From Streptosporangiaceae bacterium (lineage in GTDB: Bacteria > Actinomycetota > Actinomycetes > Streptosporangiales > Streptosporangiaceae): 64,000 nucleotides of DNA. The position numbers and the translations under genes are program-made. The notes below the pieces were generated by a model. That model saw only the letters and a program-made list of their open reading frames with translations. It did no database searches and was not told where the DNA came from. How positions within the stretch are numbered: position 1 is the stretch's first letter; the number at the start of each line of letters is the position of its first letter. The stretch lies in contig DASXIA010000321.1 in assembly GCA_036488155.1 (NCBI GenBank), positions 16,023 through 80,022 of the forward strand, given 5' to 3'. This document shows positions 7,062 to 40,041 of this stretch, piece after piece.

Positions 7062-8357
7062 TCAGCCAGTGGTGCCGCACCTGGGATCCGGCTCGAAACC
7101 GTATGCCTTCACCACGTTGGTGTCGGTGCAGAAGAGGCCCTTGTGGCCGATGAACTTCTCCAGGTTGGACGGGATGTGGTCCTTCGTGCCCGTGGCAAAG
7201 GGAACCACGACGTAGAGCCGCCGCTCAAACTGGGAGCTCACCCACTTCGGGTTGGTCACCGGGACCTTCGCCCCCCTGGGCGTCACGTATGGCGCTCCGA
7301 AGGGCTTGATGCTGTTCAGGCCGAACACGCCGATCTGGTTGCAGCCGAACTTGTTCTTGCCCTTGTGGCTTGCGTTCTTGCTGCAGCTAGCGGAGTGGTA
7401 CTTCTCGGCCAGGTACGCGCCGGTCGAGAACGGGTAGATCACGTTCGGGTTGGGCTTGCCGGATTTCGTCCCGCCAACGCGGAACACCGGGCTGATGCCC
7501 TCGTTCTCCTCAGGCTGCTGCGCGACGCCCAGGTTAGCAGCGGTGCCACAGGTGGGCTCGGAGGTCGTGGACAGGCCCAGCGCGGTCGCCATCCAGAACG
7601 AGAGCGTTCCTGACCCGGCCTGCGGGACGATCGGGTCGATGGCGCTACTTGCGCCCTTCGCGCTCGCCCCGAGCAGTGCGCCCCAGGTGTTGGCGCCAAA
7701 CCCGTTGGCGGCTGGCACGCTGCAGCTGAAGATTTCGATGAGCTGGTTCCTCGTCAGGTTGTTCGGCACGTTGGTCGATTCGCCCTTGAGGTTGGTGCTG
7801 GCGTAGGTGACAGCGTCAGCCCACAGCTCGTCGAACGCGATGCCGCCCTTAGCGTAAGGGGCGTCAGACGTCCCGCGTGGCCGCGAGGACCGCGCGAAGT
7901 TGGCGCACGCAACCGTGTGCGTCTTGCCCTTGTAGCTGTAGTGCGTGCTGCCGAGCTCGTTGGTCTCGAGCGCGGTAATACCGGCCCCAGACCCGTCGGG
8001 CCGCAGGTTCCGCTTGCAGCCTGCCTTGGGCACGATCTTCGAGGTGGTGTCGTTCAGGTTGCTCGGCGGCACCGCGTCCCAGCTGTAGATGTACGGGTTC
8101 GCCGGGGAGTCAGCCTTGGTCGTGCACCTGCCGGTTGTCTTCTTAGTGTTGGTGCCAAAGCAGTCGTAGTTGTACGTCAGCTGGTCGGTGATGTACGAGA
8201 TCGACTGCGACCCGACGCCGACGATGTCCCACGCTCTTGGCGTCACCGTCTTGTTGGTGTGCGGGTTGATCGGCTCAGCCAGAGCTGGAGCCGCCAGCAC
8301 CGCACTCGCGACGGCCGCTACCGCACCCGCCGCGAACAGAGTTTTCAGAAAGCGCAC
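7062..8357 (-). CDS. Secreted PstS-like (PBP_like_2 type) substrate-binding protein, orphan (no adjacent permease or ATPase)
   Basis: Signal peptide FLKTLFAAGAVAAVASAVLAAPALA. PstS-family landmarks are present: DIVGVGSQSISYITDQL, LRPDGSGAGITAL and IVPQAGSGTLSFW. I chose GTG 8357 as the start because GGGAGGA lies just upstream; the longest ORF starts at 8462. Confidence 0.7.
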   Translation of the reverse strand: MRFLKTLFAAGAVAAVASAVLAAPALAEPINPHTNKTVTPRAWDIVGVGSQSISYITDQLTYNYDCFGTNTKKTTGRCTTKADSPANPYIYSWDAVPPSNLNDTTSKIVPKAGCKRNLRPDGSGAGITALETNELGSTHYSYKGKTHTVACANFARSSRPRGTSDAPYAKGGIAFDELWADAVTYASTNLKGESTNVPNNLTRNQLIEIFSCSVPAANGFGANTWGALLGASAKGASSAIDPIVPQAGSGTLSFWMATALGLSTTSEPTCGTAANLGVAQQPEENEGISPVFRVGGTKSGKPNPNVIYPFSTGAYLAEKYHSASCSKNASHKGKNKFGCNQIGVFGLNSIKPFGAPYVTPRGAKVPVTNPKWVSSQFERRLYVVVPFATGTKDHIPSNLEKFIGHKGLFCTDTNVVKAYGFEPDPRCGTTG

Positions 8358-8460
8358 GCGTCCTCCCACAGACGATTGAGCGCGAACTACCGTGCAAGCA
8401 CTCGCACGGACCGCCGAGTGGCCGTCGCGCCTAAATATGCATGATGCTCGATAGGGCAAC

Positions 8461-8505
8461 AAGAAACGTTAATGAAGGCCTATCTGATGACTTGGTGAAC
8501 GGAGC
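8461..8505 (-). promoter_or_regulatory. PHO-box-like phased repeats abutting a candidate -35/-10 upstream of the PstS-like gene
   Basis: The minus strand reads GCTCCGTTCACCaagtCATCAGAtaggCCTTCATtaacGTTTCTTgTTGCCC, with TTCA-type cores recurring about every 11 nt. TTGCCC-16 nt-TATTTA follows. This is the first copy of the 13-mer TGGTGAACGGAGC (8493-8505). Confidence 0.3.
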
Positions 8506-27982: not shown

Positions 27983-28840
27983 TCAGACTCCTGCCGCTGC
28001 CTCCAGAGCACGCCCGGTCAGCACCCGCGCGAGATGTCGCCGGTAATCCGGCGCTCCGTGCAGGTCCGCAGGCGGCTGTGTTCCCTCGGCCGCGCCAGAT
28101 GCTGCCTCGCGCAGCGTCTCGGAACTGGCGAGCGCGCCGGCGGCGGCCGTCTCGACGGCGGCCGCCCTGATCGGCACCGAACCCATGTTGGTCAGCCCGA
28201 CCCTTGCCTCGGCCACGTGGCCGTCGGAGCGCCGCACCAGCGCCGCGACGCCGACAATTGCCCACGCCTGCGCGGTCCGGTGGAACTTCTCATAACGATA
28301 TCCCCAGTCGGTGCCGAGCTTTGGCACCCGGATGCCGGTGAGTATCTCGCCGGGCTCAAGTGCCGTGGTCAGGTAGTCGACAAAGAACTCGCCGGCCCGG
28401 ATCTCCCGGCTTCCCGCCGGGCCGACGGCGATCAAGGTCGCGTCCAGCGCCAGGATGACGGCTGGCAGGTCGCCAGCCGGGTCAGCGTGCGCTAGCGAGC
28501 CGCCGATCGTGCCGCGATGCCGGACGGCCGGGTCGGCGACGGTGCCGGTCGCCTCGGCGAGCAGCCCGCAGTACTCGGCGATCAGCGGATCGTGAACGAC
28601 CTGGTAGTGCGTCGTCCGGGCGCCGATCAGCAGATGGTCGCCGCCGTCGGTGACGCCGTTCAGCTCGTCCAGGCCGCCGATATCGACCAGCAGCTCCGGG
28701 TAAGCAAGGCGCAACCGCAGCAGCGGCATCAGGCTCTGCCCGCCAGCGATCACCTTGGCGTCCTCACCGCCGCCGGCAAGAGCGCTCACCGCGTCGCCGA
28801 CAGACGACGGCCGGACGTAGTCGAACTTGGCCGGGATCAT
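27983..28840 (-). CDS. FAD-binding medium subunit of a xanthine dehydrogenase/CODH-family molybdoenzyme (CoxM-like)
   Basis: [21 protein letters not shown]...KVIAGGQSLMPLLRLRL. The start ATG 28840 overlaps the large-subunit stop (ATGA). Confidence 0.9.
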   Translation of the reverse strand: MIPAKFDYVRPSSVGDAVSALAGGGEDAKVIAGGQSLMPLLRLRLAYPELLVDIGGLDELNGVTDGGDHLLIGARTTHYQVVHDPLIAEYCGLLAEATGTVADPAVRHRGTIGGSLAHADPAGDLPAVILALDATLIAVGPAGSREIRAGEFFVDYLTTALEPGEILTGIRVPKLGTDWGYRYEKFHRTAQAWAIVGVAALVRRSDGHVAEARVGLTNMGSVPIRAAAVETAAAGALASSETLREAASGAAEGTQPPADLHGAPDYRRHLARVLTGRALEAAAGV

Positions 28841-31212
28841 GCCGCGCCTCCGCTCTGCTCGCTGCTCTGGACTGCCTGGATCGCACGCCAGACCCGTTCC
28901 GGCGTGCACGGCATGGTGACGTCACGGACGCCGAACGGCCGGAGGGCATCCACGATCGCGTTCACCACTGCCGGCGTGGAGGCGATCGTGCCTGCCTCGC
29001 CTACGCCCTTGACACCGAGCCGGTTGCTGGCGGGTGTTTCGGTGCGTTCGGTCTTGTACGACGGCAGGTCGGCCGCCGACGGCACCAGGTAGTCAGCCAG
29101 CGTCGTGGTGAGCAGGTTGCCTGCGTCGTCGTAGACGCCCTCCTCGTACAGCGCCTGGGCGATGCCCTGAGCGATGCCGCCGTGCACCTGGCCTTCCACG
29201 ATCAGGGGATTCACCACGACGCCGACGTCGTCGACCGCGACGTAGCTGCGGATCTTCACGAAACCGGTCTCGGTGTCGACCTCGGTCGCGCACAGGTGCG
29301 TGCCGTGCGGGAACGAGAAGTTGTCCGGGTCGTAGGTAGCGTCGGAGTCCAGGGAGGGCTCGACACCGTCAGGCAGGGCGTGCGCAGCGAAGGTGGCCAG
29401 CGCGACCTCCTGGATCGACTTGCTCGCCTCCGGGTCACCCTTGACCGAGAAGCGCCCGGCCGAGAACTCCAGGTCGTCCTCCGAGGCTTCCAGCATCGCC
29501 GCGGCGATGATCTTGGCCTTGGCAACCACCTTGTCGCAGGCGCCAACCAGGGCTATGCCGCCGACCGCGAGCGAGCGCGAGCCATAGGTGTCCATGCCCT
29601 TGGGCGAGACCTGCGTGTCGCCATGCAGCACCCTGATGTCCTCGAACGGCACACCGAGCTGGTCGGCCACGATCTGGCTCCAGGCCGTCTCGTGCCCCTG
29701 ACCGTGCGCGCTGGAGCCGGTGACTACCTCGACCTTGCCGGTAGGCAGCATCCGGATCGAGGCGGACTCCCAGCCGCCCGCGCCGTAGGAGAGTGAGCCG
29801 AGCACCCTGGAGGGGGCCAGGCCGCACATCTCGGTAAAGGTCGAGATGCCGATCCCGAGCCGCACCTTGTCGCCCCGCTCATTGCGCAGCCGCTGCTCCT
29901 CGCGCAAGCCGTCGTAGTCGAATAGCACCTTCGCCTTGGCTGTCGCCGCCTCGTAATTGCCCGAGTCGTAGGTGAGGCCGCAAATGGTCGTGTACGGGAA
30001 CTCCTCGTGCTTGATCCAGTTGCGCTCCCGCAGCTCCAGCGGCTCGATGCCGAGTGAGTCCGCGAGCTCGTCCATGATGCGCTCAATCGCGAACGTCGCC
30101 TCCGGTCGCCCGGCGCCGCGATAGGCGTCGGTCGGCATCTTGGTCGTGAAGACACCGGTGCACTTGAACGAGTACGCGTCCATCTTGTAGATCGCCGGGA
30201 ACATGAATGCGCCCAGCAGCGGCACGCCGGGCGTGACCAGCATCAGGTAGGCACCCATGTCGGCGAGCAGGTCGACCTCCAGGCCGCGGATCCGGCCGTC
30301 GGTGTCGGCGGCGATCTTGATCCGCTGCCACTGATCCCTGCCGTGATGGACGGTCTGGTTGCCCTCGGTGCGCGATTCGTTCCACTTGACCGGCTTGCCG
30401 ACCTTGCGGCCGATCAGCACGGCCAGCACTTCCTCAGCGGTGACCTGCAGCTTCGAGCCGAAGCCGCCGCCCACGTCGGGGGCGATGACCCGGACGTTCT
30501 GCTCCGGGATGCCGAAGAACGCCGACAGCGCGAACCGCAGCACATGGGGGATCTGCGTGGCCGACCAGAGCGTGACCTCGTCGCCGATCCACTGCGCGAC
30601 CACTGCGCGCGGCTCCATCGCACACGGGATCAGCCGCTGCTGCCGGTAGTTCCGCTCCAGTACGACGGGGGCGTCACGGAACGCCGCGTCGACGTCTCCG
30701 TTGGCGAACACCCACTCGTAGCTCTTGTTACCTGCGTCGTGCACCTTCGGCGAGTCCTCGTCCAGCGCGGTGCGGATATCCAGGACCGGAGGCAGCGGCT
30801 CGTAGTCCACGTCGATCGAGGCCAGCGCGTCCGCCGCGGCGTACCTGTCGCGCGCGACGACTACGGCTACCGCCTCGCCTACGTAACGGACCTCGTCGAC
30901 GGCCATCGGCGGGTGGGGCGGGATGACGATGTCAGGAGTCACCGGCCAGGCGCACGGCAGGCTGCCCTGCTCACCAGCGAAGTCGGCGCCGGAGAAGGCG
31001 GCAATCACGCCGGGCTGGCTGAGCGCGCCGCTGACGTCCACCCTGGTGATCTTCGCGTGCGCGTACGGGCTACGCAGAAACGCCAGGTGCAGCATGCCGG
31101 TCAGCTTGATGTTGTCCGTCCAGTTGGTCTGGCCGGTGATCAGCTTCGCGTCTTCCTTGCGCAGCCTGGCCCGGCCGAGCTCGGCGGCCGGCGTGTCGAT
31201 TGTCGCGGTCAC
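28837..31212 (-). CDS. Molybdopterin-binding large subunit, form II CoxL-like (AYRGAGR active-site loop)
   Basis: [18 protein letters not shown]...; the active-site loop is [14 protein letters not shown]. The start GTG 31212 overlaps the small-subunit stop (GTGA). Confidence 0.9.
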
Positions 31213-31676
31213 TGGGCCACTCCCGCCTCTGCCGCGCGCTTGACCGCGCGGACGATGTTCTCGTAACCGGTGCACCGGCAAAGGTTGCCCTCCAGGCCAT
31301 CCCGGATCTCTTCCTCAGTGGGATGGGGGTTGTCGCGGAGCAGGTCGGTCGCCGCCATGATCATGCCGGGCGTGCAGTACCCGCACTGCAGGGCGTGCTC
31401 CTCGTGGAAGGCCCGCTGCACCGGGTGCAGTTCGCCGTTCGCCAGGCCTTCAATGGTCGTCACGTCGGAGCCGTCAGCCTGGACTGCGAGAACTGAGCAA
31501 CTCTTCACCGATTGCCCGTCCATCAAGACTGTGCACGCACCGCAGTTCGAAGTGTCGCACCCGACTGGCGTACCGGTCTTACCGACAACTTCCCTGAGAT
31601 AATGGACGAGTAGCAAGCGAGGCTCGACTTGATCTGCGTACTTAACGCCGTCAACCGTGACGGTGATATGCGTCAT
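31209..31676 (-). CDS. [2Fe-2S] small subunit (CoxS-like)
   Basis: [11 protein letters not shown]...[16 protein letters not shown]...[12 protein letters not shown]...CRCTGY are the two 2Fe-2S cysteine clusters. Confidence 0.92.
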
Positions 31677-31762
31677 TCGCTGACACCTCCGGGGACATGG
31701 CACTTGCGCCTCAGGCAAACTTAGGACGGCAGAACCCGGCGCACCAGTCCCAGGCGTGGTGT

Positions 31763-32683
31763 TTAGCCGAACCGGCCGTGCACGTAATCCGCCGTCCGCG
31801 GGTCGGCCGGATCCTCGAAGATCTGCCGGGTCGGCCCTGCCTCGACGATGTGACCCGGAGTGCTGTCAGTAGCCAGGAAAAATGCGCAGTTCTCCGATAC
31901 CCGCTGCGCCTGCTGCATGTTGTGCGTCACGATCACGATCGTTACGACCTGCTCGAGCTCGCGTATTGTCTCCTCGATCACCCTGGTCGATGTCGGGTCC
32001 AGCGCAGAGCATGGCTCATCCATCAACAGCACGTCTGGCGAGATGGCCAGCGACCTGGCGATGCACAGCCGCTGCTGCTGGCCACCGGAGAGCGCGCCGC
32101 CGGGCGAGCGAAGCCTGCGGTGCACTTCGTTCCACAACCCGGCCCGGCGCAGGCTCCCCTCGACGATCTCGCTAGTGTCGCGAACCTTGATGCCGCTGAG
32201 CTTCAGCCCGCTTGCCACGTTGTCGTAGATCGACATAGCCGGGAACGGGTTCGGCTTCTGGAACACCATCCCGATCCGCCGCCTGACTTCAGCCGGACGC
32301 ACCGTGGGGTCGTAAATGTCGTGGTCGGCTAGCAGCACCTGGCCAGAGAGCTGGGCGCCCTTGACCATCTCATGCATGCGGTTGAGAATCCGAAGGAACG
32401 TCGACTTGCCGCAGCCGGACGGCCCGATCAGCGCCGTTACTGTGCCTGGTTCCATGCGCAGCGATACCCGTTCAAGGACCTTGTGCCCGCTGAACCAGGC
32501 GGACACGTTCCTTGCCTCCAGGCCAAGAAGCGGCGCCTGCGGGCTGAGGACCGCGGTATCGGCGCCCATCCACTGCGCTGCGTCCGGCGGATACACGCCG
32601 CGCTGTCCTTCGGCTGAATCAGTCATGGCGGCTGCTCCCGTTCGTCTGCGGGTCATCGTCATCGTGGCGTCTGTCCTCGGCAC
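31763..32683 (-). CDS. pstB: Phosphate ABC transporter ATP-binding protein
   Basis: [24 protein letters not shown] (Walker A and the PstB-specific context), [28 protein letters not shown]. The start is uncertain: GTG 32683 is 2 nt past the upstream stop, and there is an internal ATG at 32626. Confidence 0.93.
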
Positions 32684-32685
32684 GG

Positions 32686-33549
32686 CTAGAAGATGTTGGG
32701 CAGCAGGGCCGCCAGGCTCTCATACAGGTTCCAGAGAATGGCCACTACCGCCGGAGCGGCGACCAGGTACACCGCCCACGGCGACCATCGTGCGGCGGCG
32801 TAGCCGCACCCAACCGCCACCAACGCGAGCGCCAGTCCCCAGGTCATTGTCAGCACCAGCGAGCCGCTATCCCCGGCCAGCGCTAGCTCCGACGGGCCGA
32901 TCGCCGGGAACTGCACATACCCGTTATTTGCCTTTGTGGTCAGGTCAGCATCGACCTCTAGGTAGTAGGCAGGCACGTCTGGCGAGTTCGCCGTAAGCAG
33001 CACAAGCCGATTTAGCGTCGGATCCTTGACCGGATGCTGGCTGTCGCCGATCGCTGCCACCTTATAGACCGAGGTGCCCTGCTGCGTGATCGTGATGATC
33101 TTGTCGCCAAGCCGCAGCTGGTCCAGCCGGGCGAACGGGCCGCCGAAGGTCTCTCGCCTTCCGTAGATCACCGACAGGCCCAGTTGCCCAGGCAGTGGCG
33201 TGTTGCGCAAGTGACCAGGACCGAGAGTTAGGTTCTCCGGCGATGTCCCTTCGACCACCACCATGTGGCGTATGCCGATGGTCGGGATGTCCAGCAGCGC
33301 CAGTGGTGCGCCGGGCTTCGTCGGGCCGAGCGGGCCGGTGTCCTGGCCAAGTTCGTAGGCCAGCTTCGTGTACAGCCCGTGCTGCACGTTGGCCTCTTGA
33401 ATATCCGAGCCGCCCAGCAGATAGCCGATGAAGCCCGCGATCAGCAGCGTGAGCAACAGCAGGCTCACGGCTACGCAGCGGGCAGCTGAGTACCTGCTGG
33501 CCTCCTCGCCGGCGGTCGCCTCCCGCTTGGCCGGCACAACCACCGTCAT
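32686..33549 (-). CDS. Membrane-anchored sortase-fold protein lacking the catalytic His, Cys and Arg (pseudo-sortase)
   Basis: The core LDIPTIGIRHMVVVEGTSPENLTLGPGHLRNTPLPGQLGLSVIYGRRETFGGPFARLDQLRLGDKIITITQQGTSVYKV...RLVLLTANSP parallels class E sortase motifs. It has YGRR in place of AGHR and TANSP in place of TC.P. There is one N-terminal and two C-terminal TM segments. The ATG overlaps the upstream PstS stop (ATGA). Confidence 0.65.
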   Translation of the reverse strand: MTVVVPAKREATAGEEASRYSAARCVAVSLLLLTLLIAGFIGYLLGGSDIQEANVQHGLYTKLAYELGQDTGPLGPTKPGAPLALLDIPTIGIRHMVVVEGTSPENLTLGPGHLRNTPLPGQLGLSVIYGRRETFGGPFARLDQLRLGDKIITITQQGTSVYKVAAIGDSQHPVKDPTLNRLVLLTANSPDVPAYYLEVDADLTTKANNGYVQFPAIGPSELALAGDSGSLVLTMTWGLALALVAVGCGYAAARWSPWAVYLVAAPAVVAILWNLYESLAALLPNIF

Positions 33550-35150
33550 CTGGGGGCCCGTCGCCGGCGACGGGTAGCCGCGTAGATGGCAGGAGGCGCC
33601 CCGACAGCAACCAGGATCAGCGCCGCCGCGACGAACCCGACCATAGCGGGACTACCGTTGCTGGAGGCGACGAGCACTGCTGAGCCCGTCACGGGCCCCT
33701 GTTGCGCGGTCGTCCCGCCACCGGATTGCCCGGGGCCGGTCGTGCTGGCGTTCGAACCGCTGGGGCTCGTTGCGTTTCCGGTACTGGCGGAACTTCCCGA
33801 ATTCGGCGTTGCGCCCGGGGCCGACGCTTTCCCGTTCACGACTACGCAATCCAGCGGCTCGCCGGCTTTCTGACATGGCGATGGCTTCGGCGCGTCCTTC
33901 AGGACGGTGAGCACGCCTTTAGTGAAAGTCGGATTATTGCAATTGCTGGACAGGCTCGGCTCCGGCACGGCGCCAGGAATTTTGGCAGCCTGATTGAGCC
34001 CGCCCTGGACCAGGTTGAGCGGAAGCGGCGAATAACCTAGCTCGGCTGAGTATTGCTGGCCAGCACACAGGAAATAGTTAATATATGTACTCAGAGTATT
34101 GCCGTCCGCGTTGCTGAAATTGCCAGAGGTCTTAGTGCTAGATCTCGGCACGACCAGGTAGCTGTAGCTCGACAGCGGATACGAGCGCGGGTCTTTGTAT
34201 GTGTAAACACTGTCCAGGTCTTGCTGCAGGTAGTTCGGGCTGCTGGCGTTCTCGTTGATCTGTGCCTGGGTCAGCGCGACGGCCACGTTAGACGCCGTGG
34301 GCTTGACGTAATAGCCTGCCGGGTTCAGCAGGCTGACCACTGGGTAGTGGATCGCCAGCGCATAAGCATATTCGTCATAGCCGATAGCGCCCTGGCCATA
34401 ATTTGCCGAGATGTAGGTCGCGACATTCTCTGAGCCGTTCTGCGAAACTGATGCACCCCAGCCGCCAGGGTAGAACTCGGTCGCCCCGCATGGCTTGCCA
34501 GACCCGCCGACCTTGCCGTGGCTCACCCGATTACAGAAGGCACCCCATAGGCTGGGGTAGACATGTGAAAGCCAGCGGGTAAAGAAATAGGTAGCGCCCG
34601 AACCGTCCGACCGGACGACCGGGATGATCGGAATGTTCGGCAGCTGCTGACCGTAGTCGTGGGTAATTTCTTTATTGTCCCAGTTAGTAATCTGGCCAGT
34701 GAATATCTTCGCGACTGTCGTACCGGACAGCCGCAGGTTGGTGATCTGCTTCCCACCTACGTCCAGGTGGTACATGAAGGAAGTTCCGCCGGCTGTGTCC
34801 GGGATGTAGGAATACCCGTACGGCGAAATTTCCGCGCCACCCTGGTCGAACGGATCAGTGCTGCTGCGGAAAGGCGGATCCGACGCGGCGAAATTCACCT
34901 GGCCGCCCATGTAGTTCTGCCGGCCTGCCTCCGACCCGTCCGGGTTGAAGTTGATCACAATCCCGTCCGTACGCAGGTTCTCGGCCCACTGATTGAGGGC
35001 GACGTAACTCCAGGTAGAACCCGCGCCGTTGATTGCGGTGTAAGTGCCGGCCGAACTCGCCAGGGCGGGCGAAACCGGCGCCGCAGCCGCCAGGGCGACC
35101 CCAAGGATCAGCATGAGCCGGCGGCCGGCAAAGCGATGACGAGATCTCAT
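33546..35150 (-). CDS. pstS: Phosphate-binding protein PstS with Sec signal peptide, low-complexity stalk and C-terminal TM anchor (no lipobox)
   Basis: INGAGSTWSYVALNQW, NFNPDGSEAGRQ, NFAASDPP, LSGTTVAKIFTGQITNWDN and IPVVRSDGSGATYFFTRWL reproduce the PstS phosphate-ligand motifs. The N-terminus ends ...PALASS (signal peptidase I-like, no Cys). The C-terminus is ...GPVTGSAVLVASSNGSPAMVGFVAAALILVAVGAPPAIYAATRRRRRAPR. Confidence 0.85.
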   Translation of the reverse strand: MRSRHRFAGRRLMLILGVALAAAAPVSPALASSAGTYTAINGAGSTWSYVALNQWAENLRTDGIVINFNPDGSEAGRQNYMGGQVNFAASDPPFRSSTDPFDQGGAEISPYGYSYIPDTAGGTSFMYHLDVGGKQITNLRLSGTTVAKIFTGQITNWDNKEITHDYGQQLPNIPIIPVVRSDGSGATYFFTRWLSHVYPSLWGAFCNRVSHGKVGGSGKPCGATEFYPGGWGASVSQNGSENVATYISANYGQGAIGYDEYAYALAIHYPVVSLLNPAGYYVKPTASNVAVALTQAQINENASSPNYLQQDLDSVYTYKDPRSYPLSSYSYLVVPRSSTKTSGNFSNADGNTLSTYINYFLCAGQQYSAELGYSPLPLNLVQGGLNQAAKIPGAVPEPSLSSNCNNPTFTKGVLTVLKDAPKPSPCQKAGEPLDCVVVNGKASAPGATPNSGSSASTGNATSPSGSNASTTGPGQSGGGTTAQQGPVTGSAVLVASSNGSPAMVGFVAAALILVAVGAPPAIYAATRRRRRAPR

Positions 35151-37627
35151 GGCCTAGTCCTCCTCGGGAGCCGCAGACCGGGCAGGCGCTGGGTCAGCAC
35201 GCGCGCTCGGCGCAGCCTGCTGAGGGCAGCAGCGCCGCCGCGCCGCCCCACGACGAGCCCGGTAGAACCGGCCAAAGCAAGCAGTACGCCAGCGATGAGC
35301 AGTACCTGCAGGGCATACCTGGCTGGCCCAGAGGTACCCGGATGGCTGTCGTAGCCAAGGCTGATGGTTCGCGGACTCGACGACTTGGTAGCGGAAGCCG
35401 ATGACGATGGGCTCGCAGAAGCAGTCGGCGTAGTGCTTGCAGCGTGCTTGGCTTTCTTACCGGCCTGATTGAGTACCTCGCGGGCCGCTTTGAGAGTCTG
35501 CGCCCGCATCGTGGCGGTCAGCGGCAGGTAGCCAGGAGGCAGCTCGCCGGGACCGAACCCGGGCTGCTGGCCTGGGCCAGCTACGTAGTCAAGCCATTGG
35601 GCGATCTTGGCTGCCTTCCGCTTCGAGATTCCCCCGGTCGGGACCATTGCGTAGATGACTATTGTCAGCGGGTAAGCAGTGCGGAACTTCTTACTTGTGT
35701 TTTTCAAATTGAACTGCTGGGTGACGCCATTCTTCGCGGTCGTCATATCGCCAAGCGCAGCGCTCATGCTCGCCGCGGTAGGCGCGGCGTAATTGCCTGC
35801 TGGGTTCTCCACTGACGCCACCGGCAGACGGTAGGCGGCGGCGTCGGACTGGTCGAGGACCGCGAACAGGGAACGCGTGCCGGGAATCTCCGGACTTGGC
35901 GGTGGAAAGCTGCCGTTCGCGACCGGAATCCACTGAGTACCGGGCGACATGTCGTTCACCTGATTCTGAGCGACCGCACTGAGCGGGAAGACAGGAACAA
36001 ACTGACGCTGGATCGGCGGGAACGGATCGAACGAATTCAGCGCGCTGGTCGGAAGCTTCATGCCGAGGTACCAGGAATTGACATGCGCGCCCCAGGGGTC
36101 AAAGCTGCCGCCAGCGAACGCCTTCGCATCCTTGTTCGCGGATATCCACTTGGTGAGTTCCGTGGTCATGTCGCTTTGGCCGGACAACACGGTGGGTATC
36201 TCATACGGATACGCGGGACTCACGGGCGGGAAATGCGGGTTAAGCTTTCGGAACTCGGGATCCACGAAGAGTGACGCCGGGTCATTGTCAACCCCGTTGT
36301 CGCACGTGCGACCCTTGTGAGGCGGGCCGTTACCGCACCCCTCATTCGAGAAGTTAAAGGACTGGGTCAGCAGCTTGAGCACCAGCCTCGGGTCGAGTTT
36401 GAGATGGCTGTCCTGCTTTCCCGTCCTGGAGTTGTCGACCCCAAATGCGACGGACTCCGCCGTGATGGCCACCGGGGCGTAGGTAAATGGCCGCGCCGCG
36501 CCACCGGTCGAAGTGACCGGAAGCGTGGTGAATCCGACGTCCGCCGTGGGCGGGCTGGCCGTGAAATCCGTCCGGGCCAGCGGCTCGCCCTGGGTCGAGT
36601 CATACCGGATGACCACTGGGCTGGCGGAAGCGCACAGCTTGGTCTGCCAAGACGTCATCGCGCGAGCCAGCATCGGCGAGCCGATCGCGCTGAATTGAGA
36701 ATTGCGCACCGGGCAGTTCGTGGGCGTCGGCGCGAAGTGGATCGGCACTATAATCCGGTCTCGCCAGGCGCAGATCCCGGTTTGGGAACCGAATGAGGAG
36801 CTTCCGGTGGCGTATTCGAATAGCCCCTTATCCTCGCTGTGATCCTTGCAGTGGCCGTTGCCGGCATTGCCGCCATCGGCCGCATCTATGATCAGCGAGC
36901 ACGCGTGGCCTTGACCGCAGCCTAGGTTCGGGGCCTCTTGCGCAGTGAGCAACTGAATGTATGCGACTCCCGTTCCGTCGGGCGACGTTGTCGCGTACAC
37001 GGTGTTGTACGGCCCGAACTGGCTCTCCTGCGCTGCCGCACCGCTGTTGTTGACGCCGAAGCACTGGCTCCGTTTCGTCGGGTGAGGGACGGAGCACTGG
37101 GCAATCATGACCGGGTAGAAGGTCGTGATCGCCTGGTAGGGCAAGCCCTGACTCGGTGTGAACCCTCGCCACTTCACCTGGACTACCTGGTTGACCAGCG
37201 AACCCACCTGGGTGACCGTGACGTAGCTGGGGTTAGAGAAGTATTTGTGCTTCGCCGGATCCCACATCTTCGGCCCCTTGACGACCGCGCCCCCTGGTGG
37301 CGTTGGCGGCCGGGCTGTGGGGTGGCCCGGCTTGGGTGAATGACTCGGGCTGGGTTTCGGTGACTTGCTCGGTGCCGGTGACACGCTCTGCGTTGGTGAC
37401 GTGCTTGCCGTCGGCGACTGGCTGGGCGTGGACGACTGGCTCGGTTGCCCCGCGACGACACTCGCGTGCGCATCCGAGGCGATCCCGGCTGCCGAGGGCA
37501 GTAGCGCGACGGCCATCACTATCGATCCGGCACCGGCCAGCACGAACACTCGACGGGCAAAATCAGGTGCCGGCAGTCGCGAACGCAAGGTGCCCCTCAT
37601 CTGGTGGTCCTGACCGGGACGGTTCAT
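35147..37627 (-). CDS. Large (~826 aa) surface protein: signal/TM, Pro/Ser/Thr-rich stalk, Cys-containing domain, degenerate PstS-like domain, C-terminal TM anchor
   Basis: VFVLAGAGSIVMAVALLPSAAG, then a QPSQSSTPSQSPTASTSPTQSVSPAPSKSPKPSPSHSPKP stalk. The PBP-like part runs NSQFSAIGSPMLARAMTSWQTKL...IPTVLSGQSDMTTELTKWI...AYPLTIVIYAMVP. The tail is SHPGTSGPARYALQVLLIAGVLLALAGSTGLVVGRRGG. I chose ATG 37627 as the start because it overlaps the pstA stop (ATGA); the longest ORF starts at 37834. Confidence 0.65.
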   Translation of the reverse strand: MNRPGQDHQMRGTLRSRLPAPDFARRVFVLAGAGSIVMAVALLPSAAGIASDAHASVVAGQPSQSSTPSQSPTASTSPTQSVSPAPSKSPKPSPSHSPKPGHPTARPPTPPGGAVVKGPKMWDPAKHKYFSNPSYVTVTQVGSLVNQVVQVKWRGFTPSQGLPYQAITTFYPVMIAQCSVPHPTKRSQCFGVNNSGAAAQESQFGPYNTVYATTSPDGTGVAYIQLLTAQEAPNLGCGQGHACSLIIDAADGGNAGNGHCKDHSEDKGLFEYATGSSSFGSQTGICAWRDRIIVPIHFAPTPTNCPVRNSQFSAIGSPMLARAMTSWQTKLCASASPVVIRYDSTQGEPLARTDFTASPPTADVGFTTLPVTSTGGAARPFTYAPVAITAESVAFGVDNSRTGKQDSHLKLDPRLVLKLLTQSFNFSNEGCGNGPPHKGRTCDNGVDNDPASLFVDPEFRKLNPHFPPVSPAYPYEIPTVLSGQSDMTTELTKWISANKDAKAFAGGSFDPWGAHVNSWYLGMKLPTSALNSFDPFPPIQRQFVPVFPLSAVAQNQVNDMSPGTQWIPVANGSFPPPSPEIPGTRSLFAVLDQSDAAAYRLPVASVENPAGNYAAPTAASMSAALGDMTTAKNGVTQQFNLKNTSKKFRTAYPLTIVIYAMVPTGGISKRKAAKIAQWLDYVAGPGQQPGFGPGELPPGYLPLTATMRAQTLKAAREVLNQAGKKAKHAASTTPTASASPSSSASATKSSSPRTISLGYDSHPGTSGPARYALQVLLIAGVLLALAGSTGLVVGRRGGAAALSRLRRARVLTQRLPGLRLPRRTRP

Positions 37628-38880
37628 GAGTTGGCCGCCTCCCGGCTGAGCTTGCGGATTTGCCGCCTGGACAGCTCGCCTGGACGTCCGCCGCCGACCA
37701 CGCGCGCGATCGTGAACAAGACCAGCACGACGAGCATGAGCGCGAGGCTGGCCCCGAAAGCACGGGCGATGAACTCGGCCCGGCCTTCTGCCTCGACGTA
37801 GGTGAAGATAAGAGTCGGCAGCGTGGCTTGCCACCCGTGGAAGGGGTCGGCATTCATGACGTTACTGAACCCGTCCGCAAGTAGCACCGGCGCAGTCTCG
37901 CCGATTCCGAGTGCCATCGCCAGCACTACGGCTGTTGTCAGGCCCGAGCGGGCCGTTGGCAGGATCACTTGCCAGACGGTGCGCCATTGGCTGGCGCCAA
38001 GGGCGAAGGCTGCCTCGCGCAGTGTGCCCGGCACCACCCTGAGCACGACTTCCGATGCCCGGATCACCGTCGGAAGCATGATGATGGCGATGGCCAGCGA
38101 GGCGGCGAAACCGGACTCCGGCAAGCCGAGAGCAAGGATCGCCAGCGAGTAGATGAGCAATCCGGCGACCACCGACGGCAGCGCGGTCATCGCATTAACG
38201 ATCATGCGAACGGGGCGTTCCATCCTGCCGCCGATCTCGGTCAGAAACAGGGCCGCAGTAATACCGAGCGGCACCGAGGCCAGGCTGGCGAGAGCGAGAA
38301 TTTCAAGCGAGCCGACGGTGGCGTGCAGCACGCCTCCCTTGTTCAGCGGCGTCAGTGCAGCCACTGCTGCGGCGGTTGTGGTCCAGAAGTTCAAGTGGGC
38401 GATTGCCGGGAGGCCCTTGACGAAGCTGTAGCCAAGCTGGTCGGCGACGACCGCGCTGGCGAAGATCCCGCCGGTGCTTACGAGCACAGCGACGGTCTTG
38501 TCGCTGACCACACGCCGGTTCCACTGCAGCCCGGCGGCGGCCAGGTACAACACGACGAACGCCAGGTACCAGCAGAGCCAGAAACCGAACGCGCCGCTGA
38601 GCGGCAGCACCCGTTCGAAGAGCACCCAGGTCAGGCAGAGAGCGCCCACCGCGGCGCCGGCCACCGTGAGCACGTCCTCCGCCGTGACCCGACGGATCTG
38701 CAGCGGCACATCACTCTGCAGCGGCACATCGCTCTGCACCGACACATCGCTCTGCACCGGCACATCGCTCACGCCGTGATCAGCGCTGCCGGGCCGCGCA
38801 GCCGCACGTTCATCGACCGCACCGTCACTGCGCGCACTGTCAGATCGCTGTCGTTCGGTGGCCGGGCCTGTGGTGGTCAT
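37624..38880 (-). CDS. pstA: Phosphate ABC transporter permease PstA with a ~100-aa N-terminal extension
   Basis: LFLTEIGGR...MTALPSVVAGLLIYS...IIMLPTVIRASEVVLRVVP..LREAAFALGASQWRTVWQVILPTARSGL (EAA loop). 418 aa versus about 300 aa for typical PstA. Confidence 0.9.
   Translation of the reverse strand: MTTTGPATERQRSDSARSDGAVDERAAARPGSADHGVSDVPVQSDVSVQSDVPLQSDVPLQIRRVTAEDVLTVAGAAVGALCLTWVLFERVLPLSGAFGFWLCWYLAFVVLYLAAAGLQWNRRVVSDKTVAVLVSTGGIFASAVVADQLGYSFVKGLPAIAHLNFWTTTAAAVAALTPLNKGGVLHATVGSLEILALASLASVPLGITAALFLTEIGGRMERPVRMIVNAMTALPSVVAGLLIYSLAILALGLPESGFAASLAIAIIMLPTVIRASEVVLRVVPGTLREAAFALGASQWRTVWQVILPTARSGLTTAVVLAMALGIGETAPVLLADGFSNVMNADPFHGWQATLPTLIFTYVEAEGRAEFIARAFGASLALMLVVLVLFTIARVVGGGRPGELSRRQIRKLSREAANS
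38701..38772 (-). repeat. Four tandem 18-bp in-frame repeats inside the pstA N-terminal extension
   Basis: Units CAGCGGCACATCACTCTG / CAGCGGCACATCGCTCTG / CACCGACACATCGCTCTG / CACCGGCACATCGCTCAC encode VSDVPV-QSDVSV-QSDVPL-QSDVPL. Confidence 0.9.
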
Positions 38881-38913
38881 CGGGCGGTCCCCTTCGCCAG
38901 TGAGTGCATGCCG

Positions 38914-39915
38914 TCACTCCGCGGTCGCGGCACCCGACCGCGACCTGTTGATAACGAGCGCAGCAAACGAGTTCACGACCAGCGTGAGGGCGAACAGCAC
39001 CAGGCCCGACGCCATCAATGCGGACAGCTGAATATGGCTTGCCGACGACCAATCTCCCGCGATCAATGCGGCGATTGACTCGCTGCCCTCCTGCAGGACA
39101 TGCGGGTTGAACGTGTATATCGAGTTAACGATGAGGAGCACCGCGATCGTCTCGCCGAGCGCGCGTCCGATTCCGAGCATGCACGCGCCGATCACGCCGC
39201 CCTTACCGAACGGGATGACAACGGCCCTGATCATGCCCCACCGTGTCGATCCGAGCGCATAGGCAGCCTCTCGCTCGCCCTGCGGCGCCTGAGAGAAAAC
39301 CTCGCGCGACAGCGAGGTGATGATCGGGATCACCATCAGGCAGACCACTAGCCCGGCGATAGCCGAGGAGCCGACGAAGGCCGACGCGCTCGGCTGGATC
39401 GCGAGCCGGAACGGCGGGAACCATCTGCTGTTATGCGAGAGCCAGCCCATAGTGCCGATCGCCCTGGGCATGAACCAGTACCGGCCCCAGAGTCCGTAAA
39501 CAATGCTCGGGATCGCCGCCATCAGGTCGATGACGGCAATGAGTACCCGGCGAATCGGGCCGGGCGCATACTCGGAGATGAAGAGCGCGGTAGCGATCGC
39601 CACCGGGATCGCAAAGATGCTGGCGATAGCGCCGATGATGATCGTAAGTGGCAGCACGCCGCCGATGCCGAACTCGTTGTTGACGAAGTTCCAGCTCTGC
39701 TTCGTGAAGAAGGTCAGTCCGTCGGCACCGAATGCTGGAAGGCTGCGGTACATCAGGAAGACCAGGATGAGCCCGGTGAAGGCGAAGCTCGACAGGCCGC
39801 CAATGCGAAGTATGGCGCGGAACAGTGCATCGGCTCGTGACACTCGGGTTACGATCGTGCGCGGAGTGTCGTCGTCGTCCGGCACCGCCGCAGCGGAAGT
39901 CACCGCGATGGCCAT
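38914..39915 (-). CDS. pstC: Phosphate ABC transporter permease PstC
   Basis: FISEYAP..IRRVLIAVIDLMAAIPSIVYGLWG...SREVFSQAPQGEREAAYALGSTRWGMIRAVVIPFGKGG (EAA loop). The start is ATG 39915, preceded by GGGAGGG; the longest ORF starts at 39951. Confidence 0.92.
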   Translation of the reverse strand: MAIAVTSAAAVPDDDDTPRTIVTRVSRADALFRAILRIGGLSSFAFTGLILVFLMYRSLPAFGADGLTFFTKQSWNFVNNEFGIGGVLPLTIIIGAIASIFAIPVAIATALFISEYAPGPIRRVLIAVIDLMAAIPSIVYGLWGRYWFMPRAIGTMGWLSHNSRWFPPFRLAIQPSASAFVGSSAIAGLVVCLMVIPIITSLSREVFSQAPQGEREAAYALGSTRWGMIRAVVIPFGKGGVIGACMLGIGRALGETIAVLLIVNSIYTFNPHVLQEGSESIAALIAGDWSSASHIQLSALMASGLVLFALTLVVNSFAALVINRSRSGAATAE

Positions 39916-40008
39916 GCCGACGTCCCTCCCGTACCGGTAGCGGGGCAGCACGAAGCAGCCGCGCCCGCCTCAAACCAGGCCAATACATAGTGTTGGATTC
40001 GGATTTCT

Positions 40009-40041
40009 AGGTATCTACCGGTTGATGAACAGCAGGAGAAC
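40009..40041 (-). promoter_or_regulatory. PHO-box-like element: three contiguous 11-nt direct-repeat units upstream of pstC
   Basis: The minus strand reads GTTCTCCtgct GTTCATCaacc GGTAGATacct, exactly 11-nt phased. It is followed about 20 nt downstream by a -10-like TATGTA (39984-39989), so the third unit covers the -35 position. It matches the GTTCACC-type PhoP direct-repeat-unit consensus described for Streptomyces. Confidence 0.5.

Follow-up and report, generated by a model that had tools for sequence, protein, structure and literature searches.

In the stretch of DNA analyzed here (64,000 nucleotides of Streptosporangiaceae bacterium, GenBank assembly GCA_036488155.1, contig DASXIA010000321.1, positions 16,023 to 80,022 of the forward strand; hereafter, the window), the minus strand carries a run of six genes, for PstC, PstA, an 826-amino-acid (aa) protein, a tail-anchored PstS-like protein, a catalytically dead sortase homologue, and PstB (Table 1). 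Judging from sequence and genome comparison, these genes probably constitute one phosphate-starvation-induced operon for a Pst-type phosphate ATP-binding cassette (ABC) importer, with the dead sortase as a membrane partner. A previous interpretation made from the letters of the window alone (the sequence-only reading) had described a pst operon interrupted by a three-gene surface module. Its coordinates and six-gene order were confirmed, and all of the open reading frames (ORFs) were found there on the minus strand. Three genes do lie between pstA and pstB, but the interruption is not peculiar to this locus; the gene order is one permutation of a widespread six-gene core. No canonical pstS was found within the 64-kb window.

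The sortase homologue matched the sortase family PF04203 at 54 bits (cut-off 26.6) over profile positions 1–83 of 125 only, and the class E model NF033747 at 71 bits, far below the cut-off of 160. Among solved structures it is closest to sortases, including several class E enzymes such as SrtE1. The protein consists of an N-terminal transmembrane segment (aa ~22–47), a sortase-like ectodomain (aa ~80–205), and a C-terminal two-helix transmembrane hairpin (aa ~228–286, helices placed from a low-confidence model) ending in LLPNIF. The catalytic His is replaced with Arg (YGRR), and the Cys of the TLxTC motif with Ala (LLTANS). The sequence-only reading had called the protein a dead sortase homologue, and this was borne out, as both residues were replaced in all 45 close orthologues: the His position was occupied by Arg in 44 and Lys in 1, and the Cys position by Ala in 39, Ser in 5, and Gly in 1. 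A profile search with the sortase homologue against 1.84 billion representative proteins returned a family of 449 clusters (50% identity, E <= 1e-30); in most of them the match spanned the whole protein, C-terminal hairpin included. In the best 150 of these distant clusters, the His position held Arg in 135, Lys in 9, and His in 6, and the Cys position never held Cys. The GPGH, PxPG, and G-R-R-x-T motifs and many transmembrane residues were invariant among the close orthologues, and the GPGH, PxPG, and G-R motifs and the transmembrane hairpin were conserved in the family. The dead sortase is under strong constraint and always accompanies the 826-aa-type protein. A Cys was also present at position 188, one residue past the lost nucleophile, in 9 of the 45 orthologues, and at position 197 in 9; from the sequences, these residues may form a disulphide in one subclade.

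We scanned one genome per species for relatives of the 826-aa protein and obtained 64 loci, all from Streptosporangiales-type metagenome-assembled genomes (MAGs), Trebonia MAGs, or Trebonia kvetii 15TR583. Among the 61 related loci that bear pst genes (Treboniaceae/Streptosporangiales), the order pstC-pstA-826-PstS-like-sortase-like-pstB was intact in approximately 55, the remaining six being cut by a contig end. This order was kept down to 40% identity in the 826-aa protein. A 4-nt stop/start overlap was available at the pstA/826-aa junction in 24 of 42 loci, at the 826-aa/PstS-like junction in 36 of 45, and at the PstS-like/sortase-like junction in 16 of 41. The flanking PIG-L and molybdenum hydroxylase genes were likewise syntenic in related loci, and synteny alone is therefore weak evidence.

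Distant relatives were reached by a second profile search with the sortase homologue, which extended to named genomes. Ten distant contexts were inspected: Streptomyces sp. NPDC087420, Micromonospora sp. NPDC000089, Wenjunlia tyrosinilytica, Dactylosporangium sp., an Actinobacteria MAG, and five metagenome contigs. The dead sortase adjoined Pst-type ABC genes in all ten, and nine contained the same six-gene core in other gene orders. In the tenth (L075), pstB adjoined the sortase homologue, and part of an 826-aa-type gene was present 8.7 kb upstream; pstC, pstA, and a PstS-like gene were not found within reach of the dead sortase. Where loci were compared by BLAST, identity to the window proteins was 63–73% for PstB, 42–49% for PstC and PstA, 37–44% for the PstS-like protein (470–590 aa), 27–33% for the 826-aa-type protein (810–945 aa), and 35–38% for the sortase homologue. 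Some distant loci had the order pstB, pstC, pstA, PstS-like, 826-aa-type, and sortase-like. Others had pstC, pstA, PstS-like, 826-aa-type, a gene for a binding protein of ~350 aa, a gene for an LAxTG or LPxTG immunoglobulin (Ig)-like protein, sortase-like, and pstB. The most constant adjacency was the 826-aa-type gene followed by the sortase-like gene, often with a 4-nt overlap, and in eight of the nine distant core loci the former stood directly before the latter. A fusion ORF, P0345 (1211 aa), contains an 826-aa-type protein including its transmembrane helix together with a dead sortase, joining the tail helix of the former directly to the first helix of the latter. The recurrence of the insert genes with pst genes, which the sequence-only reading had proposed as a check on its interpretation, was thus observed across genome neighbourhoods in both related and distant loci.

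Other features of the distant loci were also recorded. A second fusion ORF, P0351 (980 aa), which like P0345 comes from metagenome/NCBI proteins, combines a neocarzinostatin-like domain, a PBP_like_2 domain, and a dead sortase; its topology is odd and could reflect a lost stop codon. In the Streptomyces locus (L068, 8498–9892) and the Micromonospora locus (L069, 9204–9974), the gene immediately preceding the dead sortase codes for a surface protein of Ig-like type that carries a true sorting signal, namely LASTG or LPRTG, a transmembrane helix, and a basic tail. An ORF of 120–190 aa that looks cytoplasmic was located before pstC or after pstB in L068 (15–458), L069 (702–1202), L071 (1314–1682), L074, and L077. 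Two of these ORFs showed faint marks of DUF1508, and the ORF is absent from the window.

The PstS-like protein matched PF12849 at 116 bits (cut-off 27). It has a signal peptide without a lipobox Cys, a PstS domain (aa ~38–385), a Cys-containing extension, a Gly/Ser/Thr linker, a transmembrane helix (aa ~503–524) with an invariant Pro-Pro, and an RRRRR tail. The absence of a lipobox Cys and the presence of a C-terminal transmembrane helix indicate a type I membrane protein rather than a lipoprotein; PstS of Streptomyces is a lipoprotein (PMC2605767). Alignment with solved PstS structures was evaluated against the ligand set of E. coli PstS (T10, S38, D56, R135, S139, G140, and T141). Seven of eight canonical phosphate-ligand positions are retained, including T46, S73, D91, R180, S184, and G185, and the Thr141 position corresponds to A186-T187, comparable to the SGDT of M. 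tuberculosis PstS-1. These ligand residues were conserved among 47 orthologues, the Pro-Pro of the transmembrane helix was conserved at long range, and the C-terminal tail was conserved as well.

The 826-aa protein had no Pfam match. It begins with a signal peptide and a Pro/Ser/Thr linker, followed by an Ig-like beta-sandwich (aa ~114–300) and a degenerate PstS-fold domain (aa ~305–723), and ends with a linker, a transmembrane helix (aa ~769–792), and an Arg-rich tail. The AlphaFold2 model, built from an alignment of 89 sequences, had a predicted local distance difference test score (pLDDT) of 78 and a predicted template modelling score (pTM) of 0.74. In Foldseek comparisons, residues ~305–723 matched PstS structures, best M. 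tuberculosis PstS3 with a template modelling score of 0.81 on the target, and residues ~114–300 matched the Ig-like fold of macromomycin/neocarzinostatin. Profile–profile comparison with the PstS-like family (hhalign) gave a probability of 97.9%. The model thus presents the 826-aa protein as a second, degenerate PstS-fold protein. In the hhalign alignment (PstS-like numbering first), the ligand positions are replaced as T46 to P318, S73 to G346, D91 to T368, R180 to a variable residue, D182 to G483, and G185 to D486. Position 318 is Glu in distant members, and Ser485-Asp486 and several other motifs are retained across distant lineages. Because the pocket positions are acidic rather than basic and partly conserved, this protein is unlikely to bind free phosphate in the canonical way. 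It contains ten invariant Cys, and R-[YW]-x-L-L at the start of its transmembrane helix is conserved at long range.

A gene for a further PstS-family protein recurred close to this system. Lone paralogues of the 826-aa gene were found in three loci (L025, L045, and L047) of genomes that also have the full operon, and each was preceded by a gene for a secreted protein of ~400 aa with a weak PBP_like_2/PstS-family-2 match (TIGR02136). In 40 of 53 related loci, one to three copies of this ~400-aa gene lay directly upstream of pstC; the window and its nearest relatives have a PIG-L deacetylase gene in its place. The earlier statement that no binding-protein gene precedes pstC is accordingly correct for the window and its sublineage but not generally. 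The window encodes its own ~400-aa homologue 31 kb away, 37% identical to the L025 and L045 copies (tblastn). The homologue adjoins purH, and an 8/10 PHO-like site, GTTCACCAAGTCATCA, is located at 8500–8479 on the minus strand, approximately 125–140 nt upstream of its probable start, a spacing similar to that of the pstC site. Trebonia kvetii 15TR583 also possesses an orphan canonical PstS (L041, 20879–22264, minus strand; TIGR00975 318 bits) with a lipobox-like VTAC. Its gene, on the other strand and 5 kb past the operon, does not adjoin pstCAB and has no counterpart in the window.

PstC scored 245.3 bits with TIGR02138, above the equivalog cut-off of 196.45. Within the N-terminal extension of PstA, tandem hexapeptide repeats (SDVPVQ/SDVSVQ/SDVPLQ) were observed at ~38700–38775 of the window (minus strand). 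PstB also has an N-terminal extension, of ~35 residues counted from ATG 32626 or ~54 counted from GTG 32683.

The sequence-only reading had placed a PHO-box-like promoter upstream of pstC, and a repeat of this kind was found there. The pair GTTCTCCTGCT/GTTCATCAACC is the sole match of at least 9/10 to GTTCA-N6-GTTCA on both strands of the whole window. A PHO-like match of at least 8/10 was present at –110 to –142 from pstC in 41 of 55 orthologous upstream regions; in shuffled upstream regions, the number of loci with such a match was 3.9 on average and 9 at most. In Streptomyces, the sites upstream of pstS to which PhoP binds are paired direct repeat units of 11 nt (PMC7866108). We infer, on good grounds of sequence, Pho control of the operon for the window's clade, and restrict it to this clade because only two of the seven distant loci checked have a match of at least 8/10 near pstC. 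In Streptomyces, phoU is unlinked to pst, as is normal for actinomycetes (PMC7866108), so the lack of phoU that the sequence-only reading had stated for the window, in which no search aimed at phoU or phoPR was made, is unremarkable. Between the repeat and the pstC start (39916–40019, minus strand), a well conserved block of ~100 nt, CTAGAAATACGAGTCGAAGAGTATGTATTTGCCTGAGGCGG...GGCTGCTTCA, was observed. It is also found in the nearest relatives, e.g., L004, L005, L006, L007, and L059, and is probably the –10 region and leader. An Rfam scan of the operon and leader, this block included, matched no family.

The junctions between the genes were examined in the sequence. The three ATGA stop/start overlaps that had been claimed are all present, at pstA/826-aa, 826-aa/PstS-like, and PstS-like/sortase-like. 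A GGAGG-type Shine-Dalgarno sequence precedes the first two of these, and pstC is separated from pstA by 33 nt. The pstC ATG is preceded by GGGAGG at 9 nt. At the last junction, the sortase-like stop codon is 2 nt from GTG 32683, the first possible start of pstB. ATG 32626 is the likelier start because GGGAG precedes it, because a 287-aa gene was called on the identical metagenome contig L001, and because the PstB hidden Markov model does not match the long ORF before residue 55. This start leaves a gap of 59 nt after the sortase-like gene, so that coupling there is looser than had been proposed for the last five genes. Within the six-gene unit, terminator-like and promoter-like sites were not in excess over shuffled sequence.

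Table 1. Features of the six-gene locus and associated elements; positions refer to the window
Feature	Position	Strand	Description
pstC	38914..39915	-	Phosphate ABC permease, 333 aa from ATG 39915; longest ORF from GTG 39951
pstA	37624..38880	-	Phosphate ABC permease with N-terminal extension of ~125 aa
826-aa gene	35147..37627	-	Ig-like beta-sandwich and degenerate PstS-fold domain, C-terminal transmembrane helix
PstS-like gene	33546..35150	-	Tail-anchored PstS-like protein, 534 aa
Sortase-like gene	32686..33549	-	Catalytically dead class-E-like sortase homologue, 287 aa
pstB	31763..32626	-	Phosphate ABC ATPase, 287 aa from ATG 32626; longest ORF from GTG 32683
PHO-box-like repeat	40020..40041	-	Two 11-nt direct repeats, 126 nt ahead of the pstC start
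~400-aa gene, unlinked	7062..8462	-	Secreted PstS-family homologue; ORF as listed, true start probably near 8357

Downstream of the unit, genes for a CoxS/CoxL-like molybdenum hydroxylase (28837–31718, minus strand) begin 45–90 nt after pstB on the same strand. Of 54 related loci, 36 have a coxS homologue less than 600 nt from pstB. The interval between pstB and the cox genes contains no terminator-like site, and read-through is possible.

The conserved gene order, the recurring 4-nt overlaps, and the recurring PHO-like repeat agree with the earlier proposal that the insert is a working part of the transporter. The gene layout, the protein identities, the lost catalytic residues, the kept or lost phosphate ligands, and the co-occurrence of the genes are computed results; induction by PhoP, phosphate as the substrate, and an adaptor role for the dead sortase are inferred. 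In such a system, PstC, PstA, and PstB would form the channel and motor, and the PstS-like protein would be the phosphate receptor, held by its C-terminal transmembrane helix on a flexible stalk instead of a lipid anchor. The 826-aa protein would be a second tail-anchored surface accessory acting in capture, relay, or scaffolding, possibly as a scaffold or dock for the soluble ~400-aa binding protein whose gene lies nearby in relatives. The dead sortase would be a membrane partner without enzymatic activity, assembling the tail-anchored proteins, chiefly the 826-aa protein, or positioning them at the transporter.

Both tail-anchored proteins end in a hydrophobic segment and a basic tail, but neither carries an LPXTG/LAXTG pentapeptide. 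In the Trebonia-like clade, looser tail motifs were seen: GPVTG ~13 aa before the helix, and NPxT[SA]G. The idea that the dead sortase reads these as a degenerate sorting signal (GPVTGxVVN, NPxT[SA]G) was considered and downgraded, as the conserved islands occur in that clade only. What stays conserved at long range in both proteins is the transmembrane helices themselves. We favor a non-catalytic membrane adaptor because the tail transmembrane segments are conserved over large distances and the fusion P0345 links the helices. A more specific version is put forward tentatively: the dead sortase could be a pseudoenzyme subunit of a wall-spanning phosphate-capture machine common among actinomycetes, holding the membrane tails of the PstS-type receptor and of the 826-aa protein at the PstCA channel and perhaps using what is left of its active-site groove to bind wall peptide or lipid II, in a phosphate relay resembling the Isd haem system of Staphylococcus aureus.

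Several results weigh against a phosphate importer with a dead sortase as its membrane partner. PstA scored 185.7 bits with TIGR00974 (residues 130–395 matched), just under the cut-off of 193.45; PstB scored 335.3 bits with TIGR00972, just under 343.2; and the PstS-like protein scored 164 bits with TIGR00975, under 205. In favor of Pst identity, the orthologues of PstC and PstA in the Streptomyces locus were above the equivalog cut-offs (PstA 215 bits); PstB there, at 341, was just under. The AlphaFold2 model of the sortase homologue, based on 57 low-diversity sequences, was poor (pLDDT 51, pTM 0.34). The GPVTG and NPxT[SA]G motifs were not conserved in the Streptomyces, Micromonospora, and Wenjunlia orthologues, so recognition of a sorting-like pentapeptide is unsupported at long range. 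The true LAxTG/LPxTG neighbours in some distant loci could mean that the dead sortase handles real sorting signals in some unseen way. The scarcity of the PHO-like repeat in distant loci and the acidic pocket of the 826-aa protein also belong here.

These points bear on other explanations of the locus. All three middle proteins, or at any rate the dead sortase and the 826-aa protein, might be a regulatory or sensing device rather than part of substrate capture, with the degenerate PstS fold reporting envelope or phosphate status or gating the transporter and the dead sortase coupling it to the membrane complex. The 826-aa protein lacks the canonical phosphate ligands, and its association with the dead sortase, by adjacency and by fusion, is closer than that with any other gene; moreover, the window has no canonical pstS, and phoU in Streptomyces is likewise unlinked to pst (PMC7866108). 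However, neither protein has a cytoplasmic signalling domain, their tails being short and Arg-rich, and the Ig-like domain, the long stalks, and the frequent Big_3_5 or LPxTG surface neighbours look like a capture apparatus. Sensing is thus an unlikely role. A different cargo from free orthophosphate, such as a metal–phosphate complex, polyphosphate, an organophosphate, or another oxyanion, with specificity set by the 826-aa and ~400-aa proteins, would accommodate the score of the PstS-like protein under the PstS equivalog cut-off, its Ala at the Thr141 position, and the acidic 826-aa pocket with its invariant Asp486 and Glu or Pro at position 318. Streptomyces generally carry canonical pstSCAB (PMC7866108), which also suits another cargo, and the six-gene system is therefore probably a second one in that Streptomyces strain. 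Nevertheless, we regard another cargo as improbable: most phosphate-ligand positions are kept in the PstS-like protein, its Ala-Thr parallels the SGDT of the phosphate-binding M. tuberculosis PstS-1, PstC reaches its equivalog cut-off, and PHO-box-like control is conserved in the window's clade.

Another explanation is that the sortase homologue is still an enzyme working through other residues, processing the tails or the neighbouring LAxTG/LPxTG proteins. Several sortase motifs surrounding the groove are conserved, proteins with true sorting signals adjoin the dead sortase in two distant loci, and both tail-anchored proteins share the transmembrane and basic-tail topology of unprocessed sortase substrates. 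Activity is nonetheless very unlikely, as the nucleophile Cys was absent in the 45 close and 150 distant members, the His position was Arg or Lys in 144 of the 150, and no other Cys or His of the ectodomain is conserved except the GPGH His, which is non-catalytic and also occurs in class E sortases. That the three middle genes are a passenger insertion kept by synteny only is hardly credible. The gene order varies by lineage, and the flanking PIG-L and molybdenum hydroxylase genes are syntenic as well, but the six components occur together in nine of ten distant loci despite the reshuffled order, the stop/start overlaps recur, two of the three proteins have a PstS fold, and a fusion ORF exists. 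These results suggest that a Pst-type phosphate importer with a non-catalytic sortase homologue is the best account of the six genes.

Phosphate uptake by PstSCAB is textbook biology and is central to the control of antibiotic production in actinomycetes. The six genes apparently represent a second widespread actinomycete Pst-type system that is uncharacterised, with two membrane-tethered proteins of binding-protein fold in place of the usual binding protein. That the sequence-only reading did not recognise the arrangement from any described pst system agrees with the literature searched, in which no description of the six-gene system was found; most subscription journals lay outside its coverage, so this is not proof of absence. 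Databases label the parts piecemeal as "sortase A", "PstS family protein", or "hypothetical protein", and this gene-by-gene annotation is why the system has escaped notice. Its existence raises the questions of what a sortase unable to cut does and how phosphate is handed over from surface to membrane in thick-walled monoderms. If the pseudoenzyme-subunit version put forward above is true, the protein would be, as far as we found, the first sortase to have a defined role without catalysis, and the transporter would be the first ABC importer to contain a subunit of this kind. The system is present in isolates of Streptomyces, Micromonospora, Dactylosporangium, and Wenjunlia and also in cultured Trebonia kvetii, which makes genetics and uptake assays possible. 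Acidic soils and peat, which are poor in phosphate, commonly harbour the Trebonia-like lineage, and the system may therefore matter ecologically.

Canonical PstSCAB of E. coli, Streptomyces, and M. tuberculosis has in common with this system the PstC, PstA, and PstB model families, a PstS fold with its ligands, and an upstream PHO-type repeat. The order pstS-pstC-pstA-pstB, however, does not occur in the window, where no pstS lies upstream of pstC, and pstB is set apart from pstCA in the window's lineage. Gram-positive PstSCAB uses a lipoprotein PstS, whereas the binding protein here is anchored by a transmembrane helix. Compared with PstSCAB, two further components are obligatory here, the large degenerate PstS-fold protein and the dead sortase. 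Class E sortases (S. coelicolor SrtE1, PDB 5cuw; 5go5; 5uus) were among the best ectodomain matches and have the N-terminal anchor, GPGH, and PxPG in common with the window protein, which differs in its extra two-helix transmembrane hairpin and in a domain match that stops before the C-terminal third. The znu zinc-uptake cluster of C. diphtheriae (ZnuE/F/G), which stands for similar actinobacterial loci, is an ABC-importer locus with accessory surface proteins that have a signal peptide, a C-terminal transmembrane segment, and a positive tail, some without a recognisable sortase signal, and that bind zinc via HxD/HxH motifs (PMC12445094). That cluster contains no sortase-like gene, and its accessory proteins are not of binding-protein fold. 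The Isd haem locus of S. aureus is regulated by nutrient limitation and brings together an ABC importer, surface receptors with Ig-like domains, and a sortase encoded within the operon, SrtB. This Cys transpeptidase is active and attaches IsdC to the wall via an NPQTN signal. In its overall logic, Isd is the nearest analogy to the six-gene system, which differs from it in a sortase without His and Cys, in receptors that keep their transmembrane helices, and in phosphate instead of haem as the proposed cargo.

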